This document shows, one piece after another, positions 3,088 through 45,450 of a stretch of 64,000 nucleotides of DNA; the first letter of the stretch is position 1, and the number at the start of each line of letters is the position of its first letter. This DNA is from an uncultured Ignavibacteria bacterium. GTDB taxonomy: Bacteria; Zixibacteria; MSB-5A5; RBG-16-43-9. The DNA lies in contig CAZEDM010000004.1 of assembly GCA_964511075.1 (NCBI GenBank), positions 194,442 through 258,441 on the forward strand, written 5' to 3'. Under the pieces are notes generated by a model, which made no database searches, was not told the origin of the DNA, and saw nothing but the letters and a program-made list of their open reading frames with translations. The position numbers and the translations under genes are program-made.

Positions 3088-4473
3088 TTAAAAAAATTGT
3101 TTCCATTTCCTCTCCTCAGGCGCAGGGGTTAGATAGCTGACAATAACCAGGCATAAAAGGGATAATATCAGAGGCGGATAAACCGTGGGAACTCCCCAGG
3201 GATTGCCTAGAGCCTTCCACAGAATAGTAGTTATCATCCCAGCTCCGATGGAGGTAACTCCTCCGGCTGCAGTTGCCCTTTTCCAGAAAAAGGCTGCCAT
3301 AACCGCCGGGGTAATTCCTACCCCGTACACGGTATATGCGTAGATCGCCATCTCCAGGACCGTGGTGAAGAACCTCACCTGCACGAATGCGATTATACCA
3401 AGGAGTATCACCACTACGCGCGAGTAAAGCACTATCTTCCTCTGAGAGGCCTCGGGATTTATGAATCTCTGATAGATATCCCTGATGATGTTCGTGGAGG
3501 GAACCAGGAGGAAGGAATCGGCAGTGGAAATGATAATAGCGACGATAGCAGCCAACATTAGGCACCCGATGATCAAAGGTAACCCGAATCGAGCAGAGTA
3601 TAGCATCACCATCTCCGGCTCGATGCCGGTAAAAATGGCGCTGCCCACAATAGCCAAAATCACAATGGCTGTTTCCAGCGCTATAGTTCCAAAGACCCAT
3701 CCCAGCACTGCCCTTTTAGCGGTATTTTCATCCTTGGCTGAGAAAAATCTCTGATACATATTCGATTCGCCTAAAAGCAGAAGCATAGTAGGCAAGGAGT
3801 ACCCCAGGGCCTCAAAAAGGGACATATCCCCCAGGATCTGAAAGTGCTCCTTTGGCAGCGTATTAAGGATTGAGTTCCAACCACCGGCATTCTTTATAAG
3901 AAAGGGGAGCGCAAGACCTATTCCCAAAATCATCACGATCCCATTGAACACGTCAGTATAGGCAACGGAGATCATCCCAGCTAAAACCGTATATCCGATC
4001 ACAAACACAGCTGTTATGATTATTCCCTGATCCACAGATATCCCTGTCACAATATTCAGAACCATTCCTCCCGCTCTAAACTGATAACTGGCAATAGCAG
4101 TATAGGCAATTATGGTTGTAACGGCCCCCAGGACCCTGGCGTATTGGTTATATCTTGCCTCCAGTATATCCGGGACAGTGTATTGAGCAAATCTCCTGGC
4201 CCTGCCAGCCACCAGATAGAGAATCACAATTGCCACCCAGACTCCGGCGTCGAACCACAAAGCCGGAAAACCTCTTCTGTACGCCAATCCTGCTCCAGCG
4301 ATAATGCTTCCCGAACCGATCCAGGTGGCCAGGAGGGTTCCCACCAGGATCTTGGCTGAGAGCCTTCTGCCCGCCACCATAAAATCGGCTTGGGTCTTAA
4401 CCAGCCTGCTTCGATAAGCTCCAACTGCGGTTAGAAAAAGAAGATAGGCTAAAATGAACCAGAAGTATGTCAT
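3088..4473 (-). CDS. Sodium:solute symporter family (SSF) transporter
   Basis: 461 aa, hydrophobic throughout with about 13 TM segments. The N-terminus is SSF-like (DFMVAGRRLSAKILVGTLLATWIGSGSIIAGAGLAY). Confidence 0.85.
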   Translation of the reverse strand: MTYFWFILAYLLFLTAVGAYRSRLVKTQADFMVAGRRLSAKILVGTLLATWIGSGSIIAGAGLAYRRGFPALWFDAGVWVAIVILYLVAGRARRFAQYTVPDILEARYNQYARVLGAVTTIIAYTAIASYQFRAGGMVLNIVTGISVDQGIIITAVFVIGYTVLAGMISVAYTDVFNGIVMILGIGLALPFLIKNAGGWNSILNTLPKEHFQILGDMSLFEALGYSLPTMLLLLGESNMYQRFFSAKDENTAKRAVLGWVFGTIALETAIVILAIVGSAIFTGIEPEMVMLYSARFGLPLIIGCLMLAAIVAIIISTADSFLLVPSTNIIRDIYQRFINPEASQRKIVLYSRVVVILLGIIAFVQVRFFTTVLEMAIYAYTVYGVGITPAVMAAFFWKRATAAGGVTSIGAGMITTILWKALGNPWGVPTVYPPLILSLLCLVIVSYLTPAPEERKWKQFF

Positions 4474-5046
4474 CTGTAATAGCTCAGTTTAAACTGAGGA
4501 CATAAAAAATATTTAAGATAACGAAAAGCAAGGAGAAAGATCTCAATTGACCATTAAAACCTAAAAAAGTTTTTTGACGAATCAAAGGCAGGGTGAATTG
4601 CGACATGTAGTCATTAAAAACAATAGAAGTCTTTGGTTAACCATCAAGTACTAATAATTTAAGTACCTTGAAAAGTCAGTACGTCCCCTCCTGAACGAGT
4701 TTAGAACTTTTCTCGTCCAGAATCCCAGTTCGTCGTTATCAATATAGGGACTATTTGTATTCAGACAAGAAAAAAATCGCGCTTTGTTAGGAGTGAAGAA
4801 ATCTTAAAATAATTCTTGACAACGTTGAATAAATGTCCAATATGTATCATATAAACAGAATTATCTTGTGAAAAATAGGGTGGTCAGGAGGGTAATCAGA
4901 AAAGAATCGTTTCGCAAAAAATACTCAATCGGTTCTTCCTGGTAATGTGCACTAATTAAGAGGCAATCAATTATATATTATCAATTAATCATCCTTAGAA
5001 CATACGGATACCATTATACAGATAGACGATAATCACAAGAAATCAA

Positions 5047-8000
5047 ATGAACAAAGAGGCAGAAAATAAAAAAGAATCTTCTCAATTCCTAAAAATAGAT
5101 AGGGGTAAAACTAAATCCAATGCAATTGAAGTTCCATCTATCTCTTTACCCAAAGGCGGGGGTGCCATTAAAGGAATTGACGAGAAGTTCTCAGTGAATG
5201 CCGTAAATGGCACAGCTTCTTTCTCCATTCCTATTCCTTTTTCTCCTGCCCGGGGTGCTTCACCTCAATTAAGTTTAACGTATAATTCCGGTGCGGGGAA
5301 TGGCGTTTTTGGCTCGGGCTGGGACATAGGTTTACCATCCATTAAGCGTAAAACCGATAAAGAGCTTCCTAAATACTTAGATATTATTGATTCAGATACC
5401 TACCTTTTCTCAGAAGCAGAAGACCTTGTAGCCGAGTTTAGAAAAGAAGCTAACGGCACTTTTAGTAAAGATGCAGATGATAATTATATTATTAATGAGA
5501 AAGACTCTCCTGATGGTTTGTTCACCATTAGGTTCTACAAGCCCAGAATTGAAGGTTTATTTGCCCGGATTGAGAGATGGACTCATAAAACTACAGGTGA
5601 GATTAAATGGAGAGTTATCACCAAAGAAAATGTAACAACCTTATTTGGTTGGAGCGCCGCCTCAAGAATCTCCAACCCAAAAGATGCCAACAAAATATTT
5701 GAATGGCTGCCAGAATTCGTCTTCGATGACAAAGGTAATTGCTCCCAATATATTTACAAGAAAGAGGATGATGCAGGCTTTGACAACTCAGTTATACATA
5801 ATCGTAACCGCTTTGAGAATGGGAAGATCACCTATACCAATTTATATTTAGAAAAGGTTTTGTATGGTAATAAAACCCCATACAAAAATTTTAATGACCC
5901 CTTCCCTGCTGAAACAGATTACTTTTTCCAAACGATATTTGACTATGGTGAATACAACACAAATGCGCCTTACGATAAAATAAACACCTGGAACTTTAGA
6001 AAAGACGCCTTCTCAGAATATAAAGCGGGTTTTGAAATCCGCACTACCCGGTTGTGTAAAAGGATCTTAATTTTTCATTATTTCAATGAATTGCCTGGAG
6101 GTTCGGCTCTGGTAAAATCCTTAAATTTTGAATACGATACTTCAACAGAGAAATGTTTCACCTTCCTGAAATCCATTACCATATTTGGATATATTAAAAA
6201 GCCGGATGAAACATATTCGCATAAAAACCTCCCCCCCCTTGAATTTGAATATCAAGGGCATGACTGGAATAAAGATATAAAAACAATCGCTTCCGAAGAG
6301 TTGATACATGCCCCCATAGGCTTGGACGAATCTGAATATCTATTTACCGATTTATTCAATGAAGGTCTTTCAGGCATTCTGACAGAACAAGGCTGGGGTT
6401 GGTTTTACAAACATAATTTAGGCAATGGCAAATTTGAAGAGGCAAAATTAGTTTCACCCAAACCCTCCTTTGCTGGCGTTGGTTCACAGCTACAGTTGAT
6501 GGATTTAGATGCGGATGGATGTAAGCAGCTAGTAAATCTTAACAATGAACCCAAGGGTTACTTCGAGTTAAGCGACGAAGAGGAGTGGCAGGCTTACCGA
6601 ACTTTTGAAAATCTGCCTAACATCAATATGGGAGATACAAATTCCCGCATGCTTGATCTTAATGGGGATGGCAAACCAGAGGTCTTAATTACAGAAGAGG
6701 ATCATGTATTTACCTGGTACGAGTCGGCGGGGAGAAAAGGATTTGAAAGCGCTCACAAGACGGTAAAACATTTCGATGAAGAGGCCGGTCCACATATCGT
6801 ATTTGCCGACTCCAAACAAACGATTTTTCTGGCAGATATGTCAGGTGATGGTTTAACGGATATTGTTCGAATTCGCAACGGAGAAGTATGCTACTGGCCT
6901 AACCTAGGTTATGGAAAATTCGGGGAAAAAGTAACTATGGATAATGCCCCAATTTTTGACCATCCCGATTCATTTAATCCCTCTTATTTGAGATTGGCAG
7001 ACGTAGACGGCTCCGGCACAACCGACATCATTTATTTAGGGGAAAATAAGTTTACCTGCTGGACGAATTTAAGTGGAAATGTCTTCAGCACCACTCCCTT
7101 TGAAATAGAAGCCTTCCCTGAAATACATGATCGGGCAAGAGTCGTGGTTACCGATTTCCTCGGCAACGGTGTAGCCTGTATAGTTTGGTCAAGCCGGCTT
7201 TCGAAAGACGCCCCTGCACCTTTGCGGTACATCGACCTGATGAACAGCAAGAAACCGCACATCATGGTTTCTTACAAAAACAATCTCGGCAAAGAAGTTT
7301 CATTTGAATATACCCCCTCCACTAAATTTTACATTGAAGATAAGCTTGCAGGCAAAGCATGGGTTACCAAACTACATTTTCCTGTTCACTGCATCTCAAA
7401 AACCAAGACCAGAGACAGGATTTCGGGTTACCGTTTCGTCAGCTCTTACAAATATCATCACGGCTATTACGACCATGCTGAAAAAGAATTCAGAGGCTTT
7501 GGCATGGTGGAACAAACAGATACCGAGCATTTCGACCACTGGGTAAAAGGAAACGCCAACAATATTGTTGACCGGGAACTGCACCAGGAACCAGTAGTTA
7601 CCAAAAGCTGGTTTCATACCGGAGCATTCTTAAGCAGAGAAAATATACTCAACCAGTTCGCCCGTGAATACTGGTATGAAGAGATGGAAAGGCTGGGCTT
7701 TCCAGTAGTGAACCATGAAGTGCCATTACCCGATGCACGGCTTATCTCTGCCCCGGGATTAGACGCACCCATCATTGATCACCTCAGCGCACAGGAATGG
7801 CGGGAAGCCTTGAGGGCTTGCAAAAGTATGTCTTTACGCTCGGAAGTATTTGCCCATGATGCCCCATTATCTGGAGCAACCCCTGATCAAATTAAAAAAC
7901 AACTGACTCCCTTTTCCGTTGCCACGCATAATTGCATCATTGAACTATTGCAACCAAAAGGGCAAAACAAACACGCCATTTTTCTTGTAAAAGAAAGCGA

Positions 8001-38978: not shown

Positions 38979-39030
38979 AAATTGCCCAAACAAATCAATC
39001 GTCGGGTGTCTTGCTCACCCAGAGCTATTT
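38979..39030 (+). repeat. Left copy of a ~50-bp direct repeat bracketing the vsr-dcm-GHKL-REC block
   Basis: AAATTGCCCAAACAAATCAATCGTCGGGTGTCTTGCTCACCCAGAGCTA. By hand alignment, about 39 of 49 positions are identical to 44226-44277. Confidence 0.6.
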
Positions 39031-39068
39031 CTCTGTCTCAAAACGATACTGCATCTAACATATTTTAT

Positions 39069-40349
39069 TTATCCCTTATCAATCGGCCAATAAACAGAAA
39101 CCACGCCTGGCCGATTAACATGTCTTGATATATATGACTGGATATCAACGAGTAATTCATGTCTGATTCTACCCAGAAGTTTTTTGCTGGATTTTTTTGT
39201 ATTAAGCGGTAAAGTTGTCAGACATCTGATATCAAAAACTAACCTGTATTTTTTATTTTTAATATTAACCAAAGGCGATATATAAAGATAGTCGGTCTTT
39301 CTCTTTATTTTTTTTGAATACTCTGAAGGCCACATAAGTCCTGGCATGAACCTGTAAACACGCATTTTTTTACAGGTGTAATCGCACACAGAAGAAACCT
39401 CTAGGAAAACATCTTCCACTGAATCAATCAAACCATCTTTGTCATGATATTGCCTTAAATCACCATCAAAAACGTCTTGTATCAAAGCAGGTTTTCTGTT
39501 ATTAATTCTCCCCTCATAAATATTCCCCGGTTTTATAGAATCATCATCTTCCACTTCAGCCATCAATAATCTTGAATTGATTTTTGAGACTATATCAGCA
39601 TCAGGTTTGCCTCTGATGCGGCTACTTTTGTTTTTTCCGGTATACTGAAAGTTTTTTATTGCACTTTCAAGATTGTCAATAAAAGCCATATTGAAAGTCA
39701 GAAGGGAATTTTTAGATATTTCGTTGATATTGCCTGGTTGAAGCCTTTCGCCGGCATAAGCCTTGGCAAGCTCGCGAGACACCATAAACATATTTTTGTT
39801 CCAATTCATATCTGAGGGATAAAATGATGAGAAATCATCCACTATTCCCCCTGCGGATTTATGAACAATGTTTTCCCATAAAACAAACAGATGGAATGCA
39901 CCAGCTTTGTCTAATTCATTCTTGAGACGGGATTCTATTCTGTTTAGATTGTAACCACCTCTTTTGTATTTGCATTCATTCTTACGAAGATCCAGTAAAA
40001 ACAATGGAGCATTTTTTGCTAGAGCATTTTTGATTCCTGCTTTTAGCTCTGTGTGTTTGGTCCATACAATCAAAATATATGGCCCGCTTACACCTGGACC
40101 AATTATACGATTAATAACTCCCACTGCTGTTGATACTTTGGTTTTATCGCTTTGGCCATCAGTGCCAAGTACTACATCCAAGAAAATAATACGCACTCCG
40201 GCGATAGGCTTTGTTGGTAATTCTTCTTGCTTGAGCCCCGTATAATAGAGTATCGGAATACCTTTTTTTGCCAAAACCTTCACCAATGGAAGTGCTTCAT
40301 CATCCTTATCATCAATTACTACTACTCTTCCACTTTCAGGTATATTCAT
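39069..40349 (-). CDS. Receiver (REC/CheY-like) domain protein with ~300-aa unknown C-terminal domain
   Basis: The N-terminal ~125 aa carry the receiver residue pattern: RVVVIDD (D13, D14), RIIFLD (D58), ILIVWT (T97), FLLDLRK (K123). The remainder has no motif I recognise. The start overlaps the upstream gene stop by 4 nt. Confidence 0.6.
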   Translation of the reverse strand: MNIPESGRVVVIDDKDDEALPLVKVLAKKGIPILYYTGLKQEELPTKPIAGVRIIFLDVVLGTDGQSDKTKVSTAVGVINRIIGPGVSGPYILIVWTKHTELKAGIKNALAKNAPLFLLDLRKNECKYKRGGYNLNRIESRLKNELDKAGAFHLFVLWENIVHKSAGGIVDDFSSFYPSDMNWNKNMFMVSRELAKAYAGERLQPGNINEISKNSLLTFNMAFIDNLESAIKNFQYTGKNKSSRIRGKPDADIVSKINSRLLMAEVEDDDSIKPGNIYEGRINNRKPALIQDVFDGDLRQYHDKDGLIDSVEDVFLEVSSVCDYTCKKMRVYRFMPGLMWPSEYSKKIKRKTDYLYISPLVNIKNKKYRLVFDIRCLTTLPLNTKKSSKKLLGRIRHELLVDIQSYISRHVNRPGVVSVYWPIDKG

Positions 40350-42451
40350 TTTGCCCTCTCTTTCCGAAATGCAAGAACGACGATTGCTCCGGACCTAAAT
40401 TCTTTAGGTACGGAAATTTCGCCTCTTTCAGGAAACATAATCTCTCCCCTATGTGCCTCCATCACGCTTTTTGCAATATGAAGTCCAAGCCCCATTCCAT
40501 CGGACTTGGCTGAAATAAAAGGTTTTGTAATTTCTTCCGTAGGCAGTGAGAAACCGGGGCCATTATCAGCTATTATGACAGACAAATAACCAGGAAGTTC
40601 ATCTGATAGGGAAATGAATATTTTCTTGTCCTTCATACCTCCATAATCAAGCCACCATATGGAATTATCAATAACATTTAGAATTGTTCCGATAACAAGA
40701 TTTCTTGCACATTTAAGTACAGGTTCACCCTTAAATCTGATATAATCCCTTATTATACTGATTTTGTGTGCGTTAAGTCTGAATTCAACATCAAAAATAG
40801 ATTGTTCAATAAGCTTTTTCATATCCTCTGATTTCCTGCCAGTGCTCCGGATAATAACACTATATCCTTCAACCAGTTGTGCAAGATGTTTAACTAAAGC
40901 AACAATCCTCGCTGATGGTTTTTCCTTCTCAATAACCTTGACAAGTTCCTCTATTATTTTTTCAGCTTCATGAATCACAACCCCAAGATTCAATCCTGCT
41001 CCAGCACTTTTCAAAAGCGTTTCATTGATAAACCTGTAATCATCTTCTATTCGCTTTAGATAAACAGAAATATCATCCTTTAATTTTATATCTTTGATTT
41101 TTGTCTCAACAAGATTTTTCAAATCAGCCAAATCAGAAATTACCGGCTCTGAGGCAGGCGTAGGCCCATAAAATGTCCTGATTTTATCCTTGTCTATTTC
41201 CCTGAATGTTTCTACCTTATCCAGAACATAAAGAATCGAGGCCTTGAAGACATTGAAAGCCTCATTATCAATGAACCCTTCCCTGTTAGTCTTCTCAATT
41301 AAATCCCTACTTTCCTTTCTCGAGAGATGAATAGCGCCTAGTATTATATTGTTGCTTATCCTTTTTGTAGGGACATTTACTCTCCGTAAGCCCAAATTAA
41401 GCCAGTCATTGCCCGGTTCACCGTAGTCATAAACCCTGATTCCATCTCTGTATATTCTTATTCCTCCGTTGATATCAAGATATTCCTTAAGCCCCTTTTT
41501 ATCTTGTACCCCCAAAGACAGTATCTTTGCATCTCTGTCAAAAATCAAAGCCTCAAATATAATCTTTCCTATCCGGGCTACAGACAGATCGATCGGCAAA
41601 TTATCCTTATCAACCATCTTTCTTATTTTTTTGATTTCAATGTCGTGTTCGGTAACCTGTCTGTGATGCAGCTTTCTCATAGTTGGCCAAGGCATGAACT
41701 TATATCTAAACTTTTCAATAAGATGTCCTTCAATTTCGCATTCAATCTTAAATAATGCATAATCCTTTATCTGCTGCCAAGACAATAATCCCTCAAGCCA
41801 TTCCTTCTTGTCTGTCTCAAAATTCACCCTGAAAGAATCTGGGGCATCAAAAGGAGAACAAAGAGAATTTATTGAACGATAGACTTCTCTTATCATGGCT
41901 TTATTCCACGTACCCTTCAATTTACTTATGATTATCTTAGTTCCACTTTTGTTGCCAGTAAAAACATCTGGAGTTCTCTCGGTTATCCTGACGGGAATTT
42001 CATCAAGATATTTTGACTCCTTGAAAATGTCCCAGTTAATTTTTATAACAATCTCTCTGCCGTGTTCTTTCCTAGTTATCATTTCAATTTCATTACCGAG
42101 TTTGTAAACGCTGAATCTTCCTATACCTTTTTCTCCTAAAGGAAGTCGCTTAAATTCTTTCCTCTTACTATCTCCCTCAAGAAGCTTCTCCTTGTAATCA
42201 CTTGCCGGTTCCATCCATACATTCTTTATTATCTCTAGATCCATACCCTTGCCATTATCTTCAACAGTAATAACACCTTTAACGCTATTATCAAGATTCT
42301 TCATTGATATATTGACATAGGCGGCATCAGCATCATAGGAATTCTTAACAAGCTCAAGCAAAGCTATACTCTCATTTTTTATCAGTTGATCACCAAGTTG
42401 TAATAGTAATCTTGCCCGAGGCTTAAAAATCACTTTATCCATGTCCGGCAT
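40346..42451 (-). CDS. Double GHKL ATPase: N-terminal MORC/MutL-like HATPase_c_3 plus C-terminal histidine-kinase-like DHp/CA core
   Basis: N-terminal Bergerat motifs ELVKNSYDA, DNGKGMD, GEKGIGRFS. C-terminal candidate H-box GVVIHEAEKII (H494), N-box ILNVIDNSIWW, G1 ADNGPGF, G2 DGMGLGLHIAKSVM. Confidence 0.7.
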   Translation of the reverse strand: MPDMDKVIFKPRARLLLQLGDQLIKNESIALLELVKNSYDADAAYVNISMKNLDNSVKGVITVEDNGKGMDLEIIKNVWMEPASDYKEKLLEGDSKRKEFKRLPLGEKGIGRFSVYKLGNEIEMITRKEHGREIVIKINWDIFKESKYLDEIPVRITERTPDVFTGNKSGTKIIISKLKGTWNKAMIREVYRSINSLCSPFDAPDSFRVNFETDKKEWLEGLLSWQQIKDYALFKIECEIEGHLIEKFRYKFMPWPTMRKLHHRQVTEHDIEIKKIRKMVDKDNLPIDLSVARIGKIIFEALIFDRDAKILSLGVQDKKGLKEYLDINGGIRIYRDGIRVYDYGEPGNDWLNLGLRRVNVPTKRISNNIILGAIHLSRKESRDLIEKTNREGFIDNEAFNVFKASILYVLDKVETFREIDKDKIRTFYGPTPASEPVISDLADLKNLVETKIKDIKLKDDISVYLKRIEDDYRFINETLLKSAGAGLNLGVVIHEAEKIIEELVKVIEKEKPSARIVALVKHLAQLVEGYSVIIRSTGRKSEDMKKLIEQSIFDVEFRLNAHKISIIRDYIRFKGEPVLKCARNLVIGTILNVIDNSIWWLDYGGMKDKKIFISLSDELPGYLSVIIADNGPGFSLPTEEITKPFISAKSDGMGLGLHIAKSVMEAHRGEIMFPERGEISVPKEFRSGAIVVLAFRKERAK

Positions 42452-43784
42452 TTTTTACCTCCCTGAATGTATCATAAACTGATTCCGCTATTTTCCTTGC
42501 AAGGAGTGGTGGCACTGCATTTCCTATCTGCCTGAAGATTTTGTTGTAAGGGCCCGCAAACCCTTCATGGTCAGGATACCAGTCAGGGAATGACTGGATT
42601 CTTGCAGCCTCCCTCACTGTGATTGTTCTTGCCTGACTACTGTCAGGATGAATGAACCTGTTGCCATCCTTCTGAAGATGTGCGAAAATAGTTGAACACG
42701 CCTTTCCCCAGCTCTGCTTCTTGTATTTGTCCTTGAAGCTGGACATATCATATTTTATCAACCTTCTGAGTCTTCTTATATTTTTGCTGTTGCTCTCAAA
42801 AATATCCTTTGCTCTCATCCCCTGCTTCATTCCCCTGAAAAGCAGAATATCATCCCTTTTCTGCCCTCTTGCAATATGATGAGTGAGAACAGTCTGGCCG
42901 TTCAGCTTAATAAAATCAAGAAAAGTCTTCCCTTTCTCCGTAAGAGAATTGTAGTGCGTGAGGAATAAATCATTATGATATGTAATTGAATCCTTGCCGG
43001 AAAATACCCTCTTGTTGTATCTTTCAATTTTCACTTTTTGATTATCTGTATTTATATCTGTAAACGTGATTTTTGCCTTCAGTTTGGGCAGGTCACCAAT
43101 CGCCTCGAATAGTGTAACATACTCTGAAGTATTGTGTGTTGGCAGTGGATACGGATTCTTTATTCCAAGGTTGTTCCCGATTAGAAACACTCTTTCTCTT
43201 GTCTGGGGAACACCATAATCAGCAGCATTAAGTATCATATAATCCGTTTTAATATCTTCATTTTCACTCTCAAAGGAATAACCAAGAGCTTTGAAGTAAG
43301 AAATGATTATATCAATGTACGTCCTGCCCTTGCTGTCCTTCTTGGAAAGTATCCCCTTGACATTTTCAAAAACAATAAATGAAGGTTTCAGCTCTTTAAC
43401 AAGAGAAATATACTCCTCATAGAGCCTGTCCATAATTCTATACTTACGGGGATTTCCTTTCTTTCCGTTTCCTGACCTCGGTCCTATCAGCGAGAAAGAC
43501 TGACAAGGCGGGCCACCGATTATAATATCCACCCCTTCCCTGCATCTTTTTACTATCTCATTGTGTATTTCCGGCTTGGTCAGATCAGCCTGAAGTACAA
43601 TTTCTTCATTCCCATATTCTTTTGAAAAATGTTTTCTAAGAGTCTGACAGGAATACCTTTCATTATCTACTGCAAGAACGACCTCAAATACCTTTCTGCT
43701 TCCGCCATCTCTAACAAGATCAAAGCCCAGTGAAAAACCACCAGCGCCTGCAAATAAATCCAGAACCTTTAGCTTATCTTTCAT
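42435..43784 (-). CDS. dcm: DNA (cytosine-5) methyltransferase
   Basis: Motif I LDLFAGAGGFSLGF, motif IV GGPPCQSFS, motif VI FENVKG, motif VIII QTRERVF, motif X GNAVPPLL. Confidence 0.92.
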   Translation of the reverse strand: MKDKLKVLDLFAGAGGFSLGFDLVRDGGSRKVFEVVLAVDNERYSCQTLRKHFSKEYGNEEIVLQADLTKPEIHNEIVKRCREGVDIIIGGPPCQSFSLIGPRSGNGKKGNPRKYRIMDRLYEEYISLVKELKPSFIVFENVKGILSKKDSKGRTYIDIIISYFKALGYSFESENEDIKTDYMILNAADYGVPQTRERVFLIGNNLGIKNPYPLPTHNTSEYVTLFEAIGDLPKLKAKITFTDINTDNQKVKIERYNKRVFSGKDSITYHNDLFLTHYNSLTEKGKTFLDFIKLNGQTVLTHHIARGQKRDDILLFRGMKQGMRAKDIFESNSKNIRRLRRLIKYDMSSFKDKYKKQSWGKACSTIFAHLQKDGNRFIHPDSSQARTITVREAARIQSFPDWYPDHEGFAGPYNKIFRQIGNAVPPLLARKIAESVYDTFREVKNAGHG

Positions 43785-44179
43785 ATCTTATCAATGATTT
43801 TCCGTTTGATTATTTTTTCATTTCTCATCTCATGCTCCCAGATTCTCAAAACTTTCCACCCTTTCTTCATGAGTTCCCTGTTTACAACTTTATCTCTTTT
43901 TACATTTGACTCTATCTTCTCTTTCCAGAATTTTATATTAGTTCTGGGTTTTATAAAACATCTGGGGCATTTATGCCAGAAACAACCATCAATGAATATC
44001 GCAATTTTCTTCCGGGGGAAAACTATATCAGGCTTTCCTGTGAGTTTATAATGAAGCCTGTATCCCTTCAGTTCGGAAGCAGATAACATTTTTCTCAGCC
44101 TGATTTCGGGCTGTGTGTTACTAGCCCTTATCATCGACATATTATAGCTGCGCTGTTTTTTTGTAAGAACATCGGTCAT
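43781..44179 (-). CDS. vsr: Very-short-patch repair endonuclease
   Basis: RSYNMSMIRASNTQPEIRLRKML...GKPDIVFPRKKIAIFIDGCFWHKCP. GGAGA RBS upstream. The stop overlaps the dcm start by 4 nt. Confidence 0.88.
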   Translation of the reverse strand: MTDVLTKKQRSYNMSMIRASNTQPEIRLRKMLSASELKGYRLHYKLTGKPDIVFPRKKIAIFIDGCFWHKCPRCFIKPRTNIKFWKEKIESNVKRDKVVNRELMKKGWKVLRIWEHEMRNEKIIKRKIIDKI

Positions 44180-44225: not shown

Positions 44226-44277
44226 AAATTGCCCGACAAACTCAATCGTCGGGTGGTTTGCGCAACCCGATCTACTC
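44226..44277 (+). repeat. Right copy of the direct repeat bracketing the defence block
   Basis: AAATTGCCCGACAAACTCAATCGTCGGGTGGTTTGCGCAACCCGATCTA. It contains a CCCGAC/GTCGGG hairpin and lies between the dnaJ stop and the vsr start. Confidence 0.6.
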
Positions 44278-44283
44278 CTATTT

Positions 44284-45450
44284 CTAAAACCCCAATGTAT
44301 TTTTTAACCTCTCAATAAAATCCTTATCCCCTTTTGGCGGCTTTATTCCGGACTTCTCCGAAAGCTCTTTTAATATTCTTTTTTCCTCAGAAGAAAGCGA
44401 AGTCGGTGTCCAGACCAGGACACGGACTATCTGGTCGCCTTTGCCATAAGAATGCAGATGGGGAATCCCTTTTCCTCTCAGCCTGAAAAGCCTGCCCGAC
44501 TGTGTGCCAGCCGGAATCTTTAATTTCACCCTGCCGTCCAGGGTTGGCACCTCTGCCTCGCTCCCTAATGCTGCCTGGGGAAAACCTATTGCCAGCTCGT
44601 AGAGCAGGTCGTCATCGTGTCTGGTAAAGTCCGGGTGCTCCTGCTCCTCGATGAAAACCAGCACGTCACCTGCAGGACCTCCCCTTTTGCCGTAATTCCC
44701 TGCACCCCGCACAGGAATATAGTTCCCGGTACTTACCCCCGGAGGCACTTTTACCGTAATGGTGCTTTCCCCTCTTGCCCTGCCGTCACCGCCGCAGGCT
44801 GAACAGGCTTTCTCGATCACCTCGCCTGAGCCGCCGCAGAGATTGCAGGTGGTAATTATAATAGACTGTCCCAAAAAAGAACGCGATACTTTTCTTGCCT
44901 CTCCTGTGCCGTGACAGGTAGGGCAGGTTCTTTTGGAAGTCCCTTTTTCTGCTCCGCTTCCCTCGCAGTCCGAACACCTGACCAGCCTCTTGAGCTTGAT
45001 CGTCTTCTCGACGCCCGTGGCAATCTCTTCCAGGGTCAGTTTAAGCTTGATCTGCAGATCCTCGCCCTTAACGGGTCCGCGCCTGGACCTGGAGGTTCTT
45101 CTTCCCCCGAAGATGTCTAAATCCTCGAACCCGAATGCCCCGAAATCCCGCATGAAAGTTCTCAGGGCATCCCCGATATCGAAACTCCCGAAATCAAAAC
45201 CCTCAAAGCCTGTTCCGGCTCCCACACCAACCCCTACATGCCCGAACTGGTCGTACCTTTTTCTTTTAGCCGGGTCTTTCAATACTTCATACGCCTCGGT
45301 TGCCTCCTTGAACTTCTCCTCAGCCTCCTTGTTCCCCGGGTTCCTGTCCGGATGGTATTGCAGAGCTAACTTCCGGTAAGCCTTTTTTACGTCCTCTTCG
45401 CTGGCACCTCTTTCCAGTCCCAGGACCTCGTAATAATCTCTTTTAGCCAT
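44284..45450 (-). CDS. dnaJ: Chaperone DnaJ
   Basis: J-domain [33 protein letters not shown], a G/F region, and four CxxCxGxG zinc-finger repeats. Confidence 0.93.

Follow-up and report, generated by a model that had tools for sequence, protein, structure and literature searches.

A repeat-bracketed vsr-dcm cassette encoding a histidine-kinase-like and a receiver-domain protein: a candidate methylation-linked conflict module with a predicted PemK/MazF-like output domain

When genes for a Vsr endonuclease and a C5 cytosine methyltransferase are followed by genes for a kinase-like and a receiver-like protein, and no classical restriction nuclease is recognised beside them, what does the second pair of genes do? 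The question is raised by a four-gene locus of an uncultured Ignavibacteria bacterium (assembly GCA_964511075.1, contig CAZEDM010000004.1), which we analysed within a window of 64,000 nucleotides (64 kb; contig positions 194,442 to 258,441); all coordinates below are those of the window. The region is a horizontally acquired 5.2-kb cassette with the gene order vsr, dcm, histidine-kinase-like (HK-like) and response-regulator-like (RR-like). We propose a conflict module tied to DNA methylation, with a toxic effector under the control of a phosphorelay; to this reading we give not quite an even chance. An earlier interpretation of the letters alone, here called the sequence-only reading, had seen in the locus a candidate undescribed restriction or defence operon. 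Its four genes are:

43781..44179, minus strand: vsr, the first gene of the operon, encoding a T:G mismatch very-short-patch repair endonuclease of 132 amino acids (aa)
42435..43784, minus strand: dcm, encoding a C5 cytosine DNA methyltransferase of 449 aa and overlapping the end of vsr by 4 nt
40346..42451, minus strand: HK-like gene, encoding a 701-aa protein with a MutL/MORC-type GHKL ATPase, a conserved middle module, an H-box and a histidine-kinase ATP-binding domain
39069..40349, minus strand: RR-like gene, encoding a 426-aa protein with a receiver, a helical domain and a predicted PemK/MazF-like beta-barrel; the gene overlaps the end of the HK-like gene by 4 nt

The reading of open reading frames (ORFs) over the window confirmed the coordinates of the four genes on the minus strand and their stop/start overlaps, which measure 4 nt between vsr and dcm (43781-43784), 17 nt between dcm and the HK-like gene (42435-42451) and 4 nt between the HK-like and RR-like genes (40346-40349). 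The single coupled operon proposed by the sequence-only reading was therefore upheld, and so were the identities that it had given to the first two products. Vsr matched TIGR00632 over the full model (1.3e-40), PF03852 (1.2e-23) and the PADLOC Vsr model (3e-22), and its translation carries the motif FIDGCFWH; Dcm matched PF00145 (1.4e-59) and TIGR00675 (1.7e-53), with the catalytic motifs PPCQSFS and ENV in the translation. The two identities, as assigned from these matches, are unambiguous. Despite DrmMII being the best PADLOC model for the methylase (PDLC02656, 1.3e-130), DISARM was rejected, because the four-gene cassette and its neighbours hold none of the other DISARM genes (drmA, drmB, drmC/E helicase, DUF1998 and PLD).

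The HK-like protein was then dissected into the following features, which span two distinct ATP-binding folds:

41939..42367, minus strand: N-terminal GHKL ATPase domain, aa 29-171 (PF13589 HATPase_c_3, 1.5e-19)
41177..41569, minus strand: middle module, aa ~295-425, with the motifs GGIRVYRDGIRVYDYG..DWL and EKTNREGF, common to the E. coli HEF_HK protein
40967..40972, minus strand: H494-E495, predicted phospho-accepting H-box
40424..40684, minus strand: C-terminal histidine-kinase-type catalytic ATP-binding (CA) domain, aa 590-676 (PF02518 HATPase_c, 1.8e-17)

Residue conservation was assessed in two alignments of 16 and 170 homologues. In both of them the Bergerat motifs of the first ATP site are intact (E33, N37, D40, D65-x-G-x-G69 and G106-G111), and the second site keeps its N box (N592/N596), its G1 box (D629-x-G631; D629-N-G631 in the protein of the window), F634 and its G2 box (G652-x-G654-x-G656). 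The H494-E495 pair is invariant in the smaller alignment, at least 97% conserved in the larger one, and aligned with SVVHHEF, the H-box in the HEF_HK domain of E. coli. The classical features of a phosphorelay kinase are present, namely a phospho-acceptor histidine with an adjacent acidic residue and the N, G1, F and G2 boxes of the CA domain. The middle module, which likewise shows invariant columns in both alignments, matched residues 374-596 of the E. coli UTI89 protein and gave a phrog_8137 match.

Profile matches in PDB agreed with a composite protein: the N-terminus returned HtpG, Hsp90, MutL and MORC, and the C-terminus returned NtrB, HK853, ThkA and FixL, with kinase CA domains down to 7e-9. 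The N-terminus also matched NF050001, the family of the BbrUII/HgiDII restriction enzymes, at 6.6e-24 and 84.4 bits over residues 16-194 only, a match confined to the GHKL domain and far below the curated cut-off of 550 bits. Homologues of the HK-like protein are numerous and unusually conserved, with 57-76% identity among the best 120, Methanosarcina mazei included.

No family of Pfam, NCBIfam or PADLOC matched the RR-like protein, and searches of PHROGs and of PDB sequences gave nothing of use; weak PF00072 matches occurred in 6 of 46 members of its family. An AlphaFold2 model built on 46 homologues (pLDDT 86.9) consists of three parts, a (beta-alpha)5 domain, an all-helical domain and a beta-rich domain with a C-terminal helix (residues 276-408), which correspond to the following features:

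39972..40328, minus strand: receiver domain, aa 8-126, with D13, D14, D58, T97 and K123; D58 codon at 40176-40178
39564..39947, minus strand: all-helical linker domain, aa 135-262, with conserved W158-E159-N160, D225 and N258
39105..39530, minus strand: beta-rich effector-candidate domain, aa 274-415; C322-D323 at 39381-39386

The N-terminal part, searched with Foldseek against PDB, matched the receivers of the response regulators PorX, AmiR, Rv1626 and FixJ with a probability of 0.99-1.0. Across 280 family members D58 is conserved in 100%, K123 in 99%, D13 in 97%, T/S97 in 96% and D14 in 94%; judged from the conservation of these residues, the receiver is phosphorylation-competent and not a pseudo-receiver. 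The two GHKL folds, the H-box histidine H494 and the receiver with D58, all of which had been put forward from the letters alone, were upheld. A profile search of 1.84 billion representatives placed the RR-like family at 2069 clusters (50% identity) at E<=1e-3 and 1037 at E<=1e-30, and nearly all of the 150 matches listed were full length.

The C-terminal 165 residues of the RR-like protein were also modelled separately (pLDDT 88.4). The sole coherent Foldseek matches of this model in PDB were MazF toxins (E. coli, S. aureus and D. radiodurans), with a probability up to 0.99, E values from 0.045 and TM scores of 0.55-0.63 on the target. In BFVD, an independent viral library, PemK/MazF-family toxins again came out on top (E 1.3e-3, probability 1.0, TM 0.66). 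Within the domain G275, C322-D323, R413 and G415 are invariant, and E317, K328, R333, D402 and H410 are conserved. No PemK Pfam match was obtained for the RR-like protein or its family members, a profile of the domain found nothing among PDB sequences, the collected loci gave a negative result when MazF homologues were sought in them as sequence support for the fold, and the operon holds no small upstream antitoxin (MazE-like) gene. Because the fold matches MazF while the sequence tests are negative and the conserved residues are not those of MazF, the domain is predicted, at the level of the fold only, to be PemK/MazF-like with a chemistry of its own. This candidate effector fold in the RR-like output domain is newly recognised here.

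Neither the HK-like nor the RR-like protein matched a nuclease family in Pfam, NCBIfam or PADLOC. Compared with a type II restriction-modification (R-M) system, the locus has the cognate methyltransferase (PF00145, 1.4e-59), and besides Vsr no recognised nuclease fold was found in Pfam, NCBIfam and PADLOC or in the structure searches with the RR-like protein. The sequence-only reading, which saw no classical nuclease motif, had left the killing activity unassigned; fold-level evidence now narrows the candidate seat of such an activity to the conserved C-terminal barrel.

In order to see how constantly the four genes travel together, neighbourhoods were scanned in one genome per GTDB species; this gave 58 loci, whose ORFs were called and searched with purpose-made profiles and seeds. 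The phyla represented include Spirochaetota, Bacteroidota, Planctomycetota, Verrucomicrobiota, Acidobacteriota, Myxococcota and Patescibacteria, and the loci also include the Bacillota genera Paenibacillus, Neobacillus and Streptococcus and one Thermoplasmata archaeon. Wherever upstream sequence is available (55 loci), the HK-like gene immediately precedes the RR-like gene, an arrangement far beyond chance. Measured from the window's pair, the divergence of the two proteins runs in parallel but at unequal rates (median identity 48% for the HK-like and 30% for the RR-like protein). In 38 of 51 evaluable loci the next gene upstream, on the same strand, is that of a C5 methylase, and its stop usually overlaps the start that follows; 8 further loci have a C5 methylase within 6.3 kb. 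Overall, dcm was found in 47 of the 58 loci. The adjacency of the two families to each other and to methyltransferases, on which the sequence-only reading had made its proposal depend, was borne out by the scan.

Endonucleases of the Vsr type and glycosylases of the HhH-GPD type can both repair the T:G mismatches that arise by deamination of 5-methylcytosine. One or the other is encoded in 41 of the 58 loci (Vsr in 31, HhH-GPD in 10) and never both. The HhH-GPD gene always follows the RR-like gene directly, its start overlapping the RR-like stop in 8 of the 10 loci; the remaining 17 loci have neither gene, and several of these are truncated contigs. A single metagenome contig (L066, 3735-5822) encodes a 695-aa RR-like::HhH-GPD fusion (P0193) downstream of dcm and the HK-like gene, which may be a sequencing artefact.

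The closest relatives of the window's proteins keep the order vsr, dcm, HK-like, RR-like at unrelated sites, either beside AbiEii and integrase genes or beside an excisionase-like HTH_17 gene. One relative adjoins a type I R-M system, and related cassettes are carried by conjugative Rhizobium and Burkholderia plasmids. Separate classical nucleases accompany the genes at some loci (MvaI/BcnI in L003; EcoRII-C and HNH in L005). A phage origin was rejected, as phage genomes essentially lack the system: among them the HK-like protein occurred only on two tiny unannotated 'Bacteriophage sp.' contigs and the RR-like protein on none.

Some loci depart from the common layout. The HK-like and RR-like genes are each split into two ORFs in a Thermoplasmata (L049, 7898-11405) and a Planctomycetota (L061, 6158-11130) metagenome-assembled genome, the latter with a 1.5-kb gap between the two genes; either the copies are decaying or the long-read assemblies contain indel errors. 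At L050 (17631-21045) a second C5 methylase lies 6 kb downstream of the pair and is followed by a different 742-aa GHKL protein, which matches the HK-like profile only at 6e-73 and may represent another paraMORC-type R-M module within one and the same island. A Bacteroidales locus (L035, 447-10415) has two successive vsr-dcm sets, the first of which precedes an EcoRII-C-type endonuclease gene, and then an enlarged HK-like gene (846 aa) and an RR-like gene.

Modules of this kind have been described before, by computation. Orlowski and Bujnicki (2008) assigned to the REBASE putative restriction enzyme R.EcoUTORF4938P an N-terminal GHKL and a C-terminal histidine-kinase-type GHKL domain (PMC2441816). 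Bellieny-Rabelo, Pretorius and Moleleki (2021) reported pairs of HK-like (HATPase_c_3 + HEF_HK + HATPase_c) and RR-like (Response_reg_2) proteins with 91.6% linkage, enriched beside C5 methylase, Vsr, MvaI_BcnI, EcoRII-C and HNH genes; they speculated that the pairs regulate R-M systems, and the output domain was not analysed there (PMC8011034). The statement of the sequence-only reading that no described system combines these four parts does not survive these papers, the first listing a double-GHKL enzyme and the second describing such methylase- and Vsr-linked pairs.

The Pfam-defined prototype of the 2021 module is found in E. coli UTI89 (NC_007946.1, 4836000-4841692), where the two genes that accompany dcm encode an ATP-binding protein of 986 aa and a protein of 555 aa annotated 'response regulator receiver domain'. 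This cassette sits in a pathogenicity island between hlyCABD/cnf1 and cdiAI with insertion sequence remnants around it, and at 99% identity or more the UTI89-type cassette occurs in 197 of 5426 complete E. coli genomes. It has in common with the window the gene order dcm, HK-like, RR-like and the HATPase_c_3 ... H-box ... HATPase_c architecture of the HK-like protein. Three stretches of the UTI89 protein (GHKL; middle module; H-box and kinase domain) were matched by the HK-like profile (E 1.3e-57), and hhalign gave a probability of 99.5%. Pairs of both types have an RR-like protein with a receiver-type N-terminus and no known output domain, are accessory and mobile, and are associated with C5 methylases, Vsr, MvaI_BcnI and EcoRII-C.

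The two types differ in the lengths of their HK-like (701 aa in the window versus 986 aa in UTI89) and RR-like proteins (426 versus 555 aa), and the Pfam models tell them apart. PF19191 (HEF_HK) gave no match at E<=0.1 for the window's HK-like protein and 6 relatives, and PF19192 (Response_reg_2) none for the window's RR-like protein and 46 members (E<=10) or for 5 other relatives (E<=1). As a positive control, the UTI89 proteins matched PF19191 at 1.5e-25 and PF19192 at 1.8e-29 in the same library, and membership of the window pair in the two families was rejected. No significant similarity between the window's RR-like family and the UTI89 Response_reg_2 protein was found by hmmsearch, hhalign or jackhmmer; the two proteins share only the receiver-type N-terminus and an L-x-[VI]-x-P-x-C-D motif. 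Diverse members of the E. coli clade, sought for a profile, did not turn up: plasmids gave 1 match, and metagenomes only copies 85-100% identical. Since the HK-like proteins are homologous, the Pfam models are unmatched and the RR-like partners lack significant similarity, the window pair is, by these comparisons, a divergent sister clade of the described module and not a Pfam-defined member of it. One member of the window's RR-like family (P0213, Chitinophaga rhizophila) bears the UniRef name 'Response receiver domain-containing protein', yet has no PF19192 match at E<=1.

Novelty is thus weakened by the match to an already described module; it is not abolished, because the earlier descriptions are computational only and the window clade falls outside their Pfam models. 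The synteny counts over 58 genomes, the alternation of Vsr and HhH-GPD, the low-GC, repeat-bracketed cassette and the predicted PemK/MazF-like fold are new here.

Other known systems resemble the cassette in part. R.EcoUTORF4938P, R.HgiDII and BbrUII share the N-terminal MutL-like GHKL domain with the window's HK-like protein and have a C5 methylase as partner; the first of them, an uncharacterised enzyme predicted in REBASE, also has the C-terminal histidine-kinase-type GHKL domain. Iyer, Abhiman and Aravind (2008) located MutL-like ATPases, the paraMORC proteins, in R-M neighbourhoods where cytosine methylase and Vsr genes abound, and noted a functional link between MutL and Vsr (PMC2292703). 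The paraMORC proteins have in common with the HK-like protein an N-terminal GHKL domain with intact motifs, methylase- and Vsr-rich neighbourhoods and a sporadic, laterally mobile distribution. Their types 1-5 carry S5 domains and nuclease, TIR or uncharacterised C-termini, often with SF2 helicase partners (PMC2292703), and, unlike the window pair, are described with no kinase H-box, second GHKL domain or receiver partner.

Detocs provides a precedent for kinase-to-receiver-to-effector logic in phage defence (10.1101/2023.01.24.525353), and as in the window a histidine-kinase-type protein is paired with a receiver protein; its output is a cell-damaging effector and not a transcription factor. 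Detocs consists of three genes, for the kinase (dtcA), a buffer receiver (dtcB) and a receiver-nucleosidase (PNP-type) effector (dtcC), and includes no methylase or MutL-like ATPase; the window cassette has no third receiver gene or nucleosidase domain, and no PADLOC named-system model matches its HK-like or RR-like protein. The analogies drawn by the sequence-only reading with paraMORC proteins in R-M context and with Detocs are reasonable ones, and in keeping with that reading PADLOC (2023 models) did not recognise the HK-like and RR-like proteins as part of a named defence system. In comparison with the PemK, MazF and Kid toxins, the domain of the window forms one protein with a receiver and a helical domain and has no adjacent MazE-like antitoxin.

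How might the four products work together? DNA methylation by Dcm and T:G repair by Vsr are established roles of these families. In the conflict module that we infer, Dcm would methylate the host DNA, thus marking it as self, and Vsr would repair the T:G mismatches created by deamination of 5-methylcytosine. The HK-like protein, a soluble MutL/MORC-type ATPase-kinase, would monitor DNA or the methylation machinery and autophosphorylate on H494. The phosphoryl group would then pass to D58 of the RR-like protein, a transfer suggested by the full conservation of both sites and the co-inheritance of the two genes. Phosphorylation of the receiver would switch, on or off, the C-terminal PemK/MazF-like barrel, the candidate toxic effector, which might act as a nuclease or be RNase-like. 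This effector might restrict invading DNA, abort infection or kill cells that lose the methylase, from which methylation would protect, and target recognition might be supplied by the methylase, as in type III systems. What the analysis shows of this are the protein architectures, the conserved residues, the synteny and the mobility; the phosphotransfer, the cue that is sensed, the toxicity and the protection by methylation belong to the proposal.

Several observations argue for such a conflict module: the intact GHKL sites, the H494-E495 pair, the complete receiver, the constant adjacency of the HK-like and RR-like genes, a repeat-bounded cassette with no other nuclease in it and housekeeping genes around it, and a toxin fold returned by two libraries. 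We also count in its favour the mobility of the cassette and its defence-island context (type I R-M, AbiEii with integrase, AIPR, GmrSD and cas1). The N-terminal GHKL domain is of the type found in the bona fide BbrUII/HgiDII restriction enzymes, and a methylase gene in first place is the usual order where DNA has to be modified before a dangerous activity appears. A more specific version, which seems to us doubtful at present, casts the pair as the restriction arm of a novel class of immunity or addiction systems tied to C5 methylation: the ATPase would read the state of DNA or methylase, and a His-to-Asp relay would gate a PemK/MazF-fold effector with catalytic residues of its own (C322-D323 and R413).

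Other results weigh against this reading. The likeness to MazF is one of fold only, in a predicted model and with weak Foldseek E values (0.045 in PDB, 1.3e-3 in BFVD); hhalign against five PDB-verified MazF-family sequences, MazF, Kid and EndoA among them, returned a probability of 0.2%, and the conserved C322, D323 and R413 (R413-P-G415) differ from the MazF catalytic residues. No methylase was found within 10 kb in 5 of the 51 evaluable loci. In M. mazei (CP187260.1; L001, 8001-11353) the pair, whose HK-like protein is 59% identical to that of the window, occurs with no methylase gene in an 18-kb locus and with cas1 ~5 kb downstream. Such loci imply that the pair cannot be lethal without an adjacent dcm, unless the methylase acts from elsewhere. 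The conserved HK-like protein is moreover combined with several different methylase subfamilies, and therefore cannot itself read the target sequence of the methylase; no sequence-reading domain was found in it. Literature searches returned no experimental test of HK-like/RR-like pairs, and PADLOC (2023 models) has no model for either protein.

The loci lacking a methylase, 3 of which out of 5 lie among defence genes (UvrD-type helicase with PLD-ResIII; AIPR with DUF4420; GmrSD), are what could be expected if the pair were a self-contained, Detocs-like abortive-infection module that answers a phage cue unrelated to methylation, with dcm and vsr merely travelling along. The occurrence of the pair alone in defence islands and beside cas1, the interchangeable methylase subfamilies and the precedent of Detocs all favour this explanation. 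However, the translational coupling of dcm to the HK-like gene in 38 of 51 loci, across many phyla and also in the distant E. coli clade, is hard to account for by hitch-hiking, and the nearest relatives hold the identical four-gene order at different genomic sites. We thus consider a module of this kind unlikely.

A second possibility is that the HK-like protein is itself the restriction endonuclease, with a new nuclease fold in its middle region, while the RR-like protein serves as an accessory or control subunit. The REBASE-based classification of its relative R.EcoUTORF4938P (PMC2441816) points in this direction, together with the strongly conserved middle module and the N-terminal homology to HgiDII and BbrUII, whose nuclease domain likewise awaits assignment. 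That homology, however, is limited to the GHKL domain (84 bits against the cut-off of 550), the REBASE assignment is a prediction and no nuclease motif was found. Conservation of about 48-76% identity across phyla is unusual for a restriction enzyme, the protein is paired with different methylase subfamilies, and we regard an endonuclease here as improbable.

The pair might also do no more than regulate the methylase, Vsr or a linked R-M system, tuning expression or activity when a signal inside the cell, for instance nucleotide levels, changes, with no toxic effector of its own. This was the reading of the 2021 authors themselves (PMC8011034); it suits the kinase-like and receiver architecture, and the separate classical nucleases at several loci (L003 and L005) would provide something to regulate. 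At most loci, however, there is no other nuclease, and the pair also occurs with no methylase at all. Among known DNA-binding domains, helix-turn-helix included, none is present in the RR-like output, whose fold matches are toxins, while a MutL/MORC-type ATPase would be unusual as a sensor of small molecules. A purely regulatory role has, in our view, a low probability.

E. coli MutL stimulates Vsr. Least probable of all is a repair accessory, in which the MutL-like ATPase helps Vsr or HhH-GPD to process T:G mismatches under the coordination of kinase and receiver: the mutually exclusive presence of Vsr or HhH-GPD in 41 of 58 loci, the position of HhH-GPD directly after the RR-like gene, the one fusion (P0193) and the MutL-Vsr link (PMC2292703) would suit it, but the methylase alone explains a nearby Vsr or glycosylase, 17 loci (several of them truncated contigs) have neither repair gene, the pair is also met where methylase and repair genes are both missing, and neither a kinase nor a toxin-like fold would be anticipated in a module that assists repair.

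The role of GHKL/paraMORC ATPases in R-M systems has been open since 2008, and the kinase- and receiver-like methylase-linked pair was flagged in 2021. The window offers a compact, divergent and repeat-bounded four-gene version of it, with H494, D58, the two ATP sites and C322/D323 as targets for point mutants. If the conflict module proposed here is correct, a phosphorelay gating a toxin-fold effector under DNA methylation would be a new design both for R-M systems and for two-component signalling. On the more specific version, histidine-kinase signalling would serve to tell self from non-self DNA, in a family of more than 2000 protein clusters of bacteria and archaea. The RR-like family is spread over many bacterial phyla, archaea and plasmids, and the module is also found in a uropathogenic E. 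coli island. Since the family is large, widespread and outside the PADLOC release used, a demonstrated function would annotate thousands of genes.

Finally, the limits of the cassette were defined by a repeat search of the window, which detected two directly repeated copies:

44226..44289: left copy of a 64-nt direct repeat, directly after the dnaJ stop, containing the hairpin CCCGAC-N10-GTCGGG
38979..39042: right copy of the 64-nt direct repeat, directly after the RR-like stop codon

The copies bracket the cassette with 77% identity at a spacing of 5247 bp, and a 30-nt repeat core occurs 2 times in the 64 kb against 0 expected by chance. The GC content between them is 36-39%, compared with 46-52% in the flanks, the low-GC stretch measuring 5.2 kb, and the ORFs between the repeats include no further nuclease. 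The flanking genes are housekeeping genes, encoding DnaJ, DUF885, PD40, an O-antigen-ligase (Wzy_C)/TPR protein and a MiaB-like enzyme. The term 'insertion with long target duplication' is used for mobile R-M units that are flanked by extended duplications, and the 64-nt repeat pair looks like a duplication of this type, left by the insertion of a mobile R-M-type unit. The repeat core, sought in metagenome contigs as a mark of an empty insertion site, gave 0 matches, and a promoter and terminator scan of the operon showed no excess over the shuffled expectation. Elsewhere in the window, positions 4000-6000 and 12000-24000 are likewise low in GC (0.38-0.42, against 0.45-0.52 in the rest) and may represent further acquired DNA.

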